From the NCBI GenBank assembly GCA_964486045.1, contig CAZALK010000006.1, positions 171,385-235,384 of the forward strand: 64,000 bases of DNA, read 5' to 3'. Below the pieces are notes generated by a model. It was not told where the DNA came from. It was given only the letters and a program-made list of their open reading frames with translations, and ran no database searches. The number at the start of each line of letters is the position of its first letter. Positions within the stretch are counted from its first letter, which is position 1. This stretch comes from an uncultured archaeon. Lineage in GTDB: Archaea > Asgardarchaeota > Lokiarchaeia > Sigyniarchaeales > SOKP01. The translations under genes and the position numbers were made by a program. This document shows positions 18,373 to 24,388 of the stretch, in pieces.

Positions 18373-18627
18373 AGATAAATCTTTCCAATAAAAGGAGTGC
18401 TATTTTGATAATAATAATATCTATTTTAAATATAATCCTTTAGATGATAGTAAGGATAATACAAAGACTACTTTTTATGTGTTTTTAAATCCCTTCAGAA
18501 AAAACAATAGAAAAAAAGTTTTAAAATTAGTGAATTCTAAATTAGATAAAATATATACTAAATTTAACACATCAATGTTCAAGGTAATATATCCATCAAA
18601 TATTGATTAAGATTAGGTAATTGAAAA

Positions 18628-18858
18628 ATGGTTAAAGTGAAGGATCTCGAAAAACTTATGGATGATTTTATGATTGAACCAGATGAAAAATTTATCGATA
18701 TAAAAAGATATCTCCTAAGTGAATTTAAATGGGAAATTAATCCTCTAAAAAAATCCCAATTTATGATTAGAGGGATTCCCATAGCGGACGACAAGAAACT
18801 CGGTGATTTGTTAAAAAGTTTTTTACCAGATGAAGTAGTTGTACTTAAAGAATTTTAA
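18628..18858 (+). CDS. ubiquitin-like (beta-grasp) small protein lacking C-terminal GG
   Basis: 76 aa that align by eye with ubiquitin: VKDL/VKTL, IEPDEKFIDIK/VEPSDTIENVK, INP/IPP, FMIRGIPIADDKKLGD/LIFAGKQLEDGRTLSD. Confidence 0.6.
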   Translation: MVKVKDLEKLMDDFMIEPDEKFIDIKRYLLSEFKWEINPLKKSQFMIRGIPIADDKKLGDLLKSFLPDEVVVLKEF

Positions 18859-20935: not shown

Positions 20936-22189
20936 TTGGAGGAAAAAACAATTTTAATCTCACAAAACCAAAATAAAATAAGATATATTCAACAAAATGA
21001 TGAATTCGATTATTTAAGGAATTTAATTAAATCAGTTGAAAAAGGAACTTGTATGGGTGTTTTATTACATGGTCCTCCAGGGACAGGAAAAACGTTATTA
21101 GCAATCACGTTATCAAATTCTTTTAACGCTCATTATTATATTATAGATGGCTCCCCTGATCTTGATCGACGAGATATCGAAGGTTATTGGGAATTATTTA
21201 AAGGGGAAACAAGATTTAATTGTGGACCCTTGACAAGAGCTATTGAAGATGCTAATAAGAATGGAATTGCGTTTATAATTATTAATGAAGTTAATGCTAT
21301 TAGGGAAAGTGAACAAATTTCATTAAATTCATTGTTATCCGAGAACCACATTAATTTAATATCAAAGGGGTTTGAAAGGTATGAATTGAATCCAAAAAGT
21401 AAACTTATAATAATTGGTACACTAAATAAGGGAGTAATTGGAATTAATAAACTTCAAGAAGCTTTTGAAGATCGCTTTATTGCAAGTCCTGAGATAGATT
21501 ATCCGGTGAAACAAAAAGAAATTGAAATTGCTACTAAAATGTCGGGGTGTAATAGAAATTTAGCCGAAATCGTCGTAGACGCAGCTAGGCAAATAAGAAA
21601 GCAAGCTATTAAAGATTTTTCAATTACAAAAATTTTTTCAACTCGTTTAATTGTAAATTTTTGTTTAGTCGTTTCCAGCATGGCTCCCAAGTTTCTAAGA
21701 CATAATATCGAAAACATTATTATCAATAAATTAGGGGAAAATCAAGAAGAGAAAAAGAGTATAGCGATGATATTAGATGGAAAAATGTTTGAGAGTAAAT
21801 TAAGAGGATTAATTAACCCTAAAGATAATTCTAAGGTTGTTCAAGAGGAAGAAATAGAATTAAGTGAAGCAGAAGAACAAAAAATTGTAATAATTATGAG
21901 GAAACATGTTAGCAAATATATCCAATTTTACAGTAAAGATAATGCTTTAAATAAAAAAGGGGAGATAATGTGGAAGTTTATTGAGTGGTTTTGGTGCTAC
22001 AATAGAAAGATCTTAAGGGAGTATTTTCATTTAACAAAAAAGCTAAATTTACATGATGTATATAGAAAAGAAACAGGAAAAAGTTATCTCTATCATGGAG
22101 AAATTACTCTCAGTTATATAAAGTGGTTATACCGTCATGAAAAGCAGGAATTATTGAACTTTATGAAAAATACATATCCAATTTTTTAA
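20936..22189 (+). CDS. MoxR/CbbQ-NirQ-type AAA+ ATPase with C-terminal extension
   Basis: Walker A GPPGTGKT, GPL.RA, Walker B IIINE, GT.N sensor, L.EAF.DRF and STR motif. Confidence 0.88.
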   Translation: MEEKTILISQNQNKIRYIQQNDEFDYLRNLIKSVEKGTCMGVLLHGPPGTGKTLLAITLSNSFNAHYYIIDGSPDLDRRDIEGYWELFKGETRFNCGPLTRAIEDANKNGIAFIIINEVNAIRESEQISLNSLLSENHINLISKGFERYELNPKSKLIIIGTLNKGVIGINKLQEAFEDRFIASPEIDYPVKQKEIEIATKMSGCNRNLAEIVVDAARQIRKQAIKDFSITKIFSTRLIVNFCLVVSSMAPKFLRHNIENIIINKLGENQEEKKSIAMILDGKMFESKLRGLINPKDNSKVVQEEEIELSEAEEQKIVIIMRKHVSKYIQFYSKDNALNKKGEIMWKFIEWFWCYNRKILREYFHLTKKLNLHDVYRKETGKSYLYHGEITLSYIKWLYRHEKQELLNFMKNTYPIF

Positions 22190-22216
22190 TATATATTATT
22201 AACATTATCAAATTTA

Positions 22217-24388
22217 GTGGTGAGTGTTTTCACAGAATTATATGAACTTTTTGAGAAAGATTTTCTTACAGATTTACTTGCCTTAACAAATACTGCTAAA
22301 AGGATCAGTGGTAACAATGATATTTTAATAAATTTCAACCAACGTTCACACATAGCTTTTACCGATGGTCGTTTTATCTACTTACCAAGCGATATTAAAA
22401 GTGACATAAAGTCATCGCAGGGTTTGGTTGCTCATGAAAGCGGTCATATAGGTTATGGATCATATGAATTATCTTTTATTAAACTGGCTAAAATAATTTC
22501 CACTAAGTATTCCTTCCCTGAATATATTGTGAAAAAAATTATTAATGTTGTAGAAGATGTAAGAATTAATGTATTAAATGACATAAAATTTCCAGGTTTC
22601 TATAAAAATTTAAGGACACTTACTAAAAAGTTGTTACCTGAATTAAAATTAAGAATGAAAAAATCAGGTGATATTTTAGTTTATTTAAATTTGTATATGG
22701 AAGATTATAAAGATTTTCAGAAAAAGCCAAAATTTAGAACACGGCTAATGTCTGATGAAGATTGGAAAGCAATTTTGGTTGCAAAAACGTTTTTATTGAA
22801 GACTTTAACACCAGCTTCTTCAATTATTACAATCGATCAATTATCTAAGGTTTTAAAAAAATATTATATCAAAAGGACGATTGTTAAAAACCCACCTCCA
22901 TTCACAAGATCAGTATCATCTCAAGGTAGGGATGAAGAATATTTCTTTGGTGATGATGAATTCGATATTGTGGAAAATAAAAGTGATGCTGAAGAATTCA
23001 CATCAAGTGTTAAAATTGAAAGTAATTTTAATGTAGATGGTGATTCAGATTTAATGGAAGATCCATGTTATTATGATGAAATTGATAATAATTCGTATCC
23101 AGATTATAATCCCTCAGGAGATGAACCCTTACTAAATCATTATGAAGATTTTACAGACAAATGGAAAAAATCAAAAGATACAGAGCTAGATCTTACCAGT
23201 GAGAAAATTATTGATAAAATAAAAGATGCGGATTTATCTACTAATGATATAGAAAGATTAATAGAAGAAATAGACTCAATTAAAGACACAATAAATGAAA
23301 TATCCGATTTTGATATCAATAATGACTCTGATACTATAAAGATTAACGATAGTGAAAAAATTGATCAAAAATTAGATTCAGAGAGCGAATGTGCTAAAAA
23401 TTATGAATATGATAAAATAAAGGAATTAGGAAAGATATTAACTAGTGTTATTGATAAAGAAAGGGTAAGTACAGAAGATGTTGAAAAAGGAAATTATCTT
23501 GAAGAATTTATAAAAATTGTTACTGATGCCCAAAATGCGATGGGAGAAAGACTCTTAACAATTGATGAAGGGATAAGCTTTATCAAATTATCTGAAGGAA
23601 AGGGAAAAAGAAAAGTAGTTGAAGCGAGGATCGAAAATGAAACTATGAAATCTATTGAGCTTTCTTATAACCAAATTATTAACGAATTTAAAAATTTAAT
23701 TGCCAAGATAAAATTTATTTTTAGAGATTTTAAGAATCAGATTGATATAGATAGCTTCCAAAAAAGGGGAAGATTAAACAGCAAATTCATTAAAGCAGTT
23801 ACCAGTGATTATAAATATAAAAAATGTTTTTCAAGAAAGAAAAAACAAAAGGAGCTTAAAATTCTTTTATTAGTTGATATCAGTGGGAGCATGAAAGGTA
23901 TCAAATTAGAATGTGCTAAAATCGCTATGATAATGCTATGTGAAGCTCTTTATGAGATTGCTCAATTACGTATTGTGCTTTTTACTGGAGATTATGATGC
24001 GATAAATATATTATTAAAAGATTTTAATGATAAACCAGATCCAAAGAAATTTGATAAATTTGGATGTCATGGAAGCGTTTGTAGTAATTTAGATGGAATT
24101 TCGTTAAAGCATGAAGCTGCAAAATTGGAAAAAAACGTGTTAATCATTGTCATATCGGATGGCCAACCAGCAGGATCCGGAAATTATGGATTGAATGATG
24201 CCATAAAAGAAATTCATAATGTAAATAAAATTTTTAAAGTTTTTGCATTTTCTATTGATGCCAAAGGGGATTATTTAGATAAATTATATGATAAAAATTG
24301 GATTTTAACTCACTCATCTGATAAAATAGACTTGGGGGAGAAATTAATCAAATTTTGTAGACTAGTTGTTAAAGAGTTTTTTAGATAG
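22217..24388 (+). CDS. vWA-domain partner of MoxR ATPase (CbbO/NorD/CobT-like) with N-terminal HExxH domain
   Basis: AFTDG..IYLP, AHESGH, NVVEDVRIN, an acidic linker, GRLN, MIDAS DISGSM, NLDG and ISDGQP. Confidence 0.85.
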   Translation: MVSVFTELYELFEKDFLTDLLALTNTAKRISGNNDILINFNQRSHIAFTDGRFIYLPSDIKSDIKSSQGLVAHESGHIGYGSYELSFIKLAKIISTKYSFPEYIVKKIINVVEDVRINVLNDIKFPGFYKNLRTLTKKLLPELKLRMKKSGDILVYLNLYMEDYKDFQKKPKFRTRLMSDEDWKAILVAKTFLLKTLTPASSIITIDQLSKVLKKYYIKRTIVKNPPPFTRSVSSQGRDEEYFFGDDEFDIVENKSDAEEFTSSVKIESNFNVDGDSDLMEDPCYYDEIDNNSYPDYNPSGDEPLLNHYEDFTDKWKKSKDTELDLTSEKIIDKIKDADLSTNDIERLIEEIDSIKDTINEISDFDINNDSDTIKINDSEKIDQKLDSESECAKNYEYDKIKELGKILTSVIDKERVSTEDVEKGNYLEEFIKIVTDAQNAMGERLLTIDEGISFIKLSEGKGKRKVVEARIENETMKSIELSYNQIINEFKNLIAKIKFIFRDFKNQIDIDSFQKRGRLNSKFIKAVTSDYKYKKCFSRKKKQKELKILLLVDISGSMKGIKLECAKIAMIMLCEALYEIAQLRIVLFTGDYDAINILLKDFNDKPDPKKFDKFGCHGSVCSNLDGISLKHEAAKLEKNVLIIVISDGQPAGSGNYGLNDAIKEIHNVNKIFKVFAFSIDAKGDYLDKLYDKNWILTHSSDKIDLGEKLIKFCRLVVKEFFR

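Follow-up and report, generated by a model that had tools for sequence, protein, structure and literature searches.

A 76-residue, tail-less protein of one Lokiarchaeial family as a candidate remodelled derivative of an archaeal ubiquitin-like protein

E1 enzymes require a flexible Gly-terminated tail. Among the small ubiquitin-like proteins (UBLs), Hub1 is a canonical beta-grasp protein which is conserved across eukaryotes and binds the HIND helices of Snu66, and YukD/EsaB and EccD belong to type VII secretion loci. The ubiquitin systems of Asgard archaea attract study as precursors of the eukaryotic one. Two papers present Hub1/UBL5 as a UBL devoid of Gly-Gly that is thought to bind non-covalently (PMC8431670, PMC4141198), and a structure-based survey of Asgard archaea found Ufm1 homologues in nine Asgard clades (PMC12962969). 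The present analysis concerns a 76-aa protein, P0001, encoded in a stretch of 64 000 nucleotides (the window) from the genome of an uncultured Lokiarchaeial archaeon (G000). No description of the P0001 family was found in the literature, and the presence of Ufm1 homologues in nine clades, far broader than the distribution of P0001, does not fit it.

With Hub1/UBL5, as portrayed in those papers, P0001 shares a stand-alone existence, a similar size and the lack of a C-terminal Gly-Gly, and by analogy Hub1/UBL5 may be regarded as its nearest functional counterpart. However, Hub1 is canonical in fold and eukaryote-wide, whereas P0001 is remodelled in its predicted structure and present in two archaeal genera. 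No sequence link or preferential structural link between P0001 and Hub1 was seen in Pfam or among the listed matches of the fold searches; Hub1 itself was not among the fold matches listed for P0001, and being unlisted does not exclude a likeness. YukD/EsaB and the UBL domain of EccD, which are small, stand-alone, non-conjugated beta-grasp modules of prokaryotes without GG, may be likened to P0001. The EccD5 UBL superposed on P0001 with a Z of 4.3 and an rmsd of 2.9 A over 66 residues, tied with dozens of beta-grasp proteins, and a cluster named EsaB/YukD appeared among the weak language-model neighbours of P0001 (0.89). In contrast to the location of YukD/EsaB and EccD, there are no type VII secretion genes near P0001.

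The probable closest relative of P0001 is a GG-ending PF00240 protein of its own genome. This protein (the C10 UBL) is encoded by an 87-aa ORF ending in AGG (C10:126245-126433 of G000; locus L038:1438-1701, + strand) and matches PF00240 at 35 bits. C10-type UBLs display 90% mean column identity over 18 genomes, are present in 11 of the 13 sampled genera of the family and carry 0-3 extra residues after AGG. Both proteins occur in the same organisms and can be aligned over ~50 columns with the elements from alpha1 to beta5 in register. The C10 UBL alone has the beta1-beta2 hairpin, the flexible AGG tail and the PF00240 assignment, and it alone matches ubiquitin and ISG15 at high Z; in P0001, by contrast, a predicted helix stands where the hairpin would be, and the tail, a terminal Gly and any Pfam match are all lacking. 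The C10 UBL gene does not stand beside an E1, its neighbour being a 136-aa ORF without Pfam match.

The P0001 gene (18628..18858, + strand) begins with an ATG at 18628 and stops with a TAA at 18856-18858, and the translation is a 76-aa product ending VVVLKEF, in full agreement with a preliminary description of this DNA, made from the sequence alone, which had reported a 76-aa ORF without Gly-Gly. The gene is present as a single copy in the 5.18-Mb genome, and at 29% G+C, against 31% for the window, its composition is unremarkable. Across 16 orthologues taken from genomes, pN/pS was 0.25 (mean pS 0.61, mean pN 0.16) and the median dN/dS was ~0.11, indicative of purifying selection, while the genus-wide identity of the protein was ~75-80% as against ~52% for the neighbouring TauE and ~63% for the methyltransferase. 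P0001 is a real gene, and strong constraint acts on most of the surface of its product. Conservation of the ORF, on which the preliminary description had made its reading depend, is borne out by ~300 homologues and a low dN/dS. A 71-aa antisense ORF (18579-18794, - strand) which overlaps the gene was rejected as a true gene, as the frame is open in the window's genome only; in 15 orthologues the longest open stretch antisense to the gene is 32-50 codons. An origin as a mobile element or as foreign DNA was also rejected, given that the chromosomal block is syntenic and the G+C content of the gene is close to that of the window. The public runs listed as containing the stretch are marine-sediment and related DNA metagenomes only, with no RNA run among them.

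A promoter-like conserved block, the TTTATAAA block, lies upstream of the P0001 gene. In the orthologues a block of the form AAAA-n-TTTATAAATTTT...TAAA..TTAATT stands ~95-58 nt 5' of the start codon, and of the 16 orthologous upstream regions 15 have kept it, across both genera and regardless of the upstream gene. The copy in the window (~18514..18547, + strand) is degenerate. By its reading the block resembles an archaeal BRE/TATA element and may serve as the promoter of the gene. Two longer regular expressions covering the block's right half (CTTAAAT / TAAATTTT onward) gave 0 matches genome-wide, the degenerate copy of the window included, and TTTATAAATTTT, its TATA-like left half, has 45 occurrences in the genome, or 10 when lengthened by four bases. 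A putative Shine-Dalgarno-like site, AGGTA (18615..18619, + strand), precedes the ATG by 8 nt, and in most orthologues its position is taken by GGAGA, GGTAA or GGGAA. A scan for sigma-70 promoters and terminators addresses bacterial-type signals and is uninformative for an archaeon.

Pfam contained no family matching P0001 at E<=1 and NCBIfam gave no match; in particular, P0001 is not recognised by the PF00240 profile, which the UBLs encoded in the genome match at 31-35 bits. PADLOC returned nothing for P0001, and the best PHROGs matches of P0001 (E 0.38) and of the neighbouring 71-aa ORF (E 0.014) were not meaningful, both being to families of unknown function. HMMER searches of all PDB chains, among them hundreds of ubiquitins, brought up no ubiquitin at E<=10 with either the single sequence or a 34-sequence profile, and the best profile match there was to a non-UBL protein, UPF0297, at a non-significant E of 0.3. 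The lack of any sequence match in Pfam, NCBIfam and the PDB, together with the UPF0297 result, favours the alternative that P0001 is an independent, lineage-specific small alpha/beta protein without UBL descent, in which the likeness in motifs and fold would be due to convergence or to a common helix-on-sheet arrangement. We regard this as rather unlikely, and as the foremost of the alternatives.

Against such an independent origin, the P0001 family and the C10 UBL were found near the top of each other's genome-wide searches. A P0001 family HMM searched against the 34,073 six-frame ORFs of the genome gave the C10 UBL as its best non-self match (E 0.011), and in the reverse search of the same 34,073 ORFs the C10 UBL HMM ranked the P0001 ORF fourth (E 0.058). 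Direct comparison of the two families by hhalign yielded a probability of 77-80% (E 1.3-1.9e-5, score 31, 49-50 columns), with P0001 residues 10/11-61 placed on UBL residues 16-64/65 at an identity of ~26-28%. In control alignments, 150 column shuffles scored 10.5 on average (sd 2.2, maximum 17.1) and the reversed profile scored 11.8, so that the score of 31 is ~9 sd above the shuffles, again arguing against independent origin. The ubiquitin encoded in the E1 operon of G000 was aligned with the P0001 family at a probability of only 0.8%, and the link of P0001 is thus specific to the C10-type UBL.

The motifs common to P0001 and the C10 UBL read D/E-P-D/N ... IK ... E-F/Y-K ... NP ... QF..+G ... 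D. Since these are largely the matches to ubiquitin that the preliminary description had picked out, the central pattern in that description was a real, if faint, signal. It had, however, been presented as a near colinear resemblance to eukaryotic ubiquitin. Of that claim, the central portion (EP-D...IK; NP; QF..G...D) is upheld by the alignment with the genome's own UBL; the pairing of the N-terminal VKDL with VKTL of ubiquitin is not, the segment being predicted as helix and not as strand beta1, and the absence of ubiquitin from the PDB and Pfam results leaves no direct match to ubiquitin itself.

An AlphaFold2 model of P0001 was built on a 39-sequence alignment (pLDDT 95.8, pTM 0.81), and an independent model of the family's cluster in the ESM Atlas agreed with it (TM 0.74, 2.4 A over 73 residues). 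The predicted elements are a short strand remnant at residues 2-3 with a one-residue bridge at 3, a helix at 4-13, a bridge at 21, a helix at 23-32, strands at 43-47 and 50-51, a bridge at 57, a helix at 58-64 and a strand at 70-75. As a control, the genome's true UBL from C10 was folded and searched likewise. Its model (pLDDT 88.2) was a textbook beta-grasp, comprising strands 2-7 and 16-20, bridge 26, helix 27-37, strands 44-50 and 53-54, bridge 60, helix 61-64, strand 72-79 and the AGG tail. When the two models are related by the hhalign offset (+5 from P0001 to the UBL before a 2-residue gap and +3 after it), each DSSP element of P0001 from bridge 21 onward has a UBL counterpart in register, two single-residue bridges included, and this correspondence also weighs against an independent origin. 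At the N-terminus, ~five residues are missing in comparison with the UBL, and a helix replaces the end of beta1, the loop and beta2, so that residues 4-13 are helical in the model where ubiquitin has its first beta-hairpin. In the sequence of this segment, hydrophobic residues are spaced at i, i+3, i+4 and i+7, as in an amphipathic helix. That the N-terminal third of the protein is helical in the model is a point in favour of an independent origin.

Foldseek against the PDB listed only ubiquitin-like proteins for P0001, namely the Get5 UBL, NEDD8, ubiquitin and ISG15, with E ~1e-2, TM ~0.5 and rmsd values of 3.6-3.8 A over ~60 columns. VIA-align, run against 48,161 representative chains, gave a best Z of 4.6 for Atg12, with SUMO, the EccD UBL, Atg5, FERM and a bacterial Ubl as near-ties behind it. 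The top 50 matches in each of three fold searches were all beta-grasp proteins, a further result that tells against an independent origin. On re-alignment of Foldseek's best 997 chains to P0001, the maximum Z was 4.7 and none reached 5, and the best structural matches had an rmsd of 3.2-3.4 A over ~59-66 residues; by the fold tool's own caveat, a Z below 8 may reflect merely a common arrangement. In contrast, the best matches of the control UBL had Z values of 11.5-12.0 (1.9 A, 74-76 residues); 749 chains reached Z>=8, and 1ubq scored 11.5. This disparity between P0001 and a bona fide UBL indicates that P0001, as modelled, does not have the canonical ubiquitin fold, and it is counted in favour of an independent origin.

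The predicted model of P0001 thus lacks the full canonical beta-grasp arrangement of a beta1-beta2 hairpin, a helix and beta3-beta4-beta5. With regard to a broader beta-grasp core, the family alignment and the elements in register are positive and the structural scores are low. As modelled, P0001 would share at most the C-terminal two-thirds of the ubiquitin fold, which superposes loosely. The preliminary description had looked to AlphaFold and Foldseek for a beta-grasp fold; the matches were indeed of beta-grasp and ubiquitin-like type, but the hairpin was missing and the best Z fell far below that of the control. Prediction of a homodimer from two copies of P0001 with alignment A2 scored 0.00 in both runs and has no bearing either way.

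The chain of P0001 closes with ...LKEF, where the last strand, beta5, also ends, and no tail extends beyond it. Among the 39 aligned members of the family the terminal residue is not fixed (I, V, L, F, A, S or K), there is no conserved Gly near the end, and two members have unrelated short extensions. The Gly or Gly-Gly tail that characterises the conjugatable modifiers (ubiquitin, SUMO, NEDD8, SAMP and ThiS/MoaD) is therefore absent from P0001, and the preliminary description was correct in calling it a protein without di-glycine and non-conjugatable. It was equally correct that the window has no E1, E2 or JAB genes: no match to PF00899 (E1), PF00179 (E2) or PF01398 (JAB) was found on contig C6, which carries the window, all such matches of the genome lying on C1, C2, C5, C10 and C12, and P0001 has no genomic association with any of the three. 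With no tail beyond beta5, no linked E1 and the requirement of E1 enzymes for such a tail, activation of P0001 is implausible, and its conjugation likewise. Elsewhere in G000, a eukaryote-like Ub(...STAG)-E1-E2-JAB cluster is present at C5:173036-175780 and a JAB-E1-E2 cluster, also eukaryote-like, at C2:173095-174913, with more E1 and E2 genes on C1. The E1 genes of G000 include those at C5:173390, C2:81306 and C2:173613.

On balance, the reading that we favour is that P0001 is a lineage-specific, N-terminally remodelled and tail-less UBL derivative which acts non-covalently; its descent from a Lokiarchaeial UBL, considered by itself, appears likely. P0001 would have arisen in a single Lokiarchaeial family, by divergence of a copy of the highly conserved GG-ending UBL of 82-87 aa that is represented on C10 of G000. 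It would have kept the helix-alpha1/beta3/beta4/short-helix/beta5 core of the ubiquitin fold, lost ~five N-terminal residues, exchanged the first beta-hairpin for an amphipathic helix and dispensed with the entire flexible C-terminal tail and its glycines. With the hairpin remodelled and the tail lost, such a protein could not be adenylated by E1 or conjugated. P0001 would instead be a small soluble module that most likely binds non-covalently, by way of the retained alpha1/beta3-beta4 surface. The 'non-conjugatable UBL adaptor' of the preliminary description was, in this respect, half right, in that the lack of GG and a probable kinship with the ubiquitin family both stand, while its assignment to a Hub1, UBX or RAWUL type finds no support among many tied, weak beta-grasp matches.

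A word-indexed search of 5.8 billion proteins retrieved 228 homologues of P0001 at 72-99% identity, nearly all of exactly 76 aa, and a family-profile search retrieved 317. The named homologues are all 'hypothetical protein' entries of Promethearchaeota or Lokiarchaeota MAGs, apart from a few labelled Thorarchaeota or Hodarchaeota by their submitters, and where the source gives a taxon label it is in every case an Asgard archaeon. At E<=1e-3, an exhaustive HMMER search of 1.84 billion cluster representatives detected only 10 clusters. A search for fused or longer forms of P0001 found none, which by the tool's own caveat is weak evidence, and the protein may be called stand-alone, as the preliminary description had it.

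In a sample of 301 genomes across the phylum, covering 30 families and 70 genera, the P0001 family was present in 20 genomes belonging to 2 genera of one family (15 of 22 genomes of genus g1, 4 of 5 genomes of genus g6 and, as the twentieth, the window's own genome). Three g1 genomes that are 99-100% complete lack the gene from its syntenic slot, where TauE is followed by an unrelated ORF of 367 aa or 449 aa; the possibility of a hidden divergent copy in these genomes was rejected, as the family HMM finds nothing in the slot. P0001 is a narrow, dispensable lineage invention. The preliminary description had further suggested an unrecognised Asgard eukaryotic-signature family, for which broad Asgard presence and eukaryotic orthologues would be expected. 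The survey across Asgard genomes contradicts this: with 2 of 70 genera, one family and 10 clusters, an Asgard-wide eukaryotic-signature family is ruled out.

The P0001 gene is always located inside one conserved chromosomal block, which is ordered ACT protein, methyltransferase, Trm112-like protein, TauE, P0001 gene and UbiA, followed by, sometimes, MoxR-VWA and a histidine phosphatase, an AmmeMemoRadiSam rSAM, one or more alpha/beta hydrolases and an MFS transporter. This constant position could be taken to indicate that P0001 is an accessory subunit or regulator of a neighbour in the block, its UBL origin being secondary, a proposal which overlaps partly with the remodelled UBL derivative that we favour and which we consider improbable. 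In its favour are the close spacings seen in individual lineages. In most g1 genomes TauE lies ~100 nt upstream on the same strand, in genus g6 the start codon of the rSAM gene abuts the P0001 stop codon, and in the two most divergent contigs an alpha/beta hydrolase is found 27-38 nt downstream. However, the immediate neighbour differs between lineages, and in the window itself two small opposite-strand ORFs, a 71-aa ORF and a DUF2061 ORF, part the gene from TauE. The promoter-like block described above belongs to the P0001 gene itself and also speaks against the proposal. Moreover, a UbiA orthologue (~75% identity) persists in genomes without the P0001 gene, for which reason a co-occurrence of P0001 with UbiA was rejected, and a TauE orthologue persists in G171, G177 and G279, which all lack the P0001 gene; in two other genomes without it, G008 and G049, no TauE was found at E<=1e-40. 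Because every genome concerned is from a single family, inheritance of the synteny suffices to account for where the gene lies. With a neighbour that varies by lineage and a UbiA that persists without the gene, we read the context in this way and do not count it towards a partner.

Two further features of this region were observed. The 71-aa ORF between TauE and the P0001 gene (17902-18117, - strand), which has no family match, is conserved in two further genomes of this genus (60-65% identity). There, too, it is located between TauE and the P0001 gene and is read in the opposite direction to the latter. Further along the window, the genes for a MoxR/CbbQ-type AAA+ ATPase and, after it, a 723-aa protein with a VWA domain (20936-24388, + strand) form a pair that is present only in some orthologous blocks (e.g. 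L028), as a variable insertion in a syntenic region.

It could also be envisaged that P0001, with its first hairpin turned into an amphipathic helix but the alpha1/beta3-beta4 recognition surface of the parental UBL retained, is a non-conjugatable decoy which competes with, or regulates, the partners of the conserved Lokiarchaeial UBL. We give this an outside chance; if true, an archaeal ubiquitin-like pathway would have in P0001 a modulator of its own. Lastly, a role as a sulfur carrier of the ThiS/MoaD/SAMP type or as a conjugatable modifier, to which the weak beta-grasp-like fold matches and the nearby TauE (sulfite-exporter family) and radical SAM genes might point, is scarcely credible for a protein with neither a C-terminal Gly-Gly, a tail past the last strand nor an internal conserved GG, with no E1-like gene on its contig and with no ThiS or MoaD match in Pfam at E<=1.

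Under the preferred reading of a remodelled UBL derivative, the P0001 family suggests that the ubiquitin-family scaffold was duplicated and reshaped within Lokiarchaeia into a stand-alone, non-conjugatable form. If the predicted change from hairpin to helix is real, P0001 would represent an uncommon structural form of a fold that is among the best studied, and would offer a handle on binding by the conserved Lokiarchaeial UBL.

A second UBL derivative was noticed in the same genome. A 623-aa protein (C13:8743-10749 of G000; locus L041:109-1980, - strand) has near its N-terminus a domain close to the C10-type UBL, which ends in ...DEQAGAG and is followed by ~450 residues without an assigned family; the arrangement resembles a UBL fusion or a UBL precursor. 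In addition, contig C7 of G000 opens with a single uninterrupted frame of 9,498 codons or more (C7:1-28494, + strand), which has a weak UBL HMM match (E 0.0015) and encodes an apparent giant protein.
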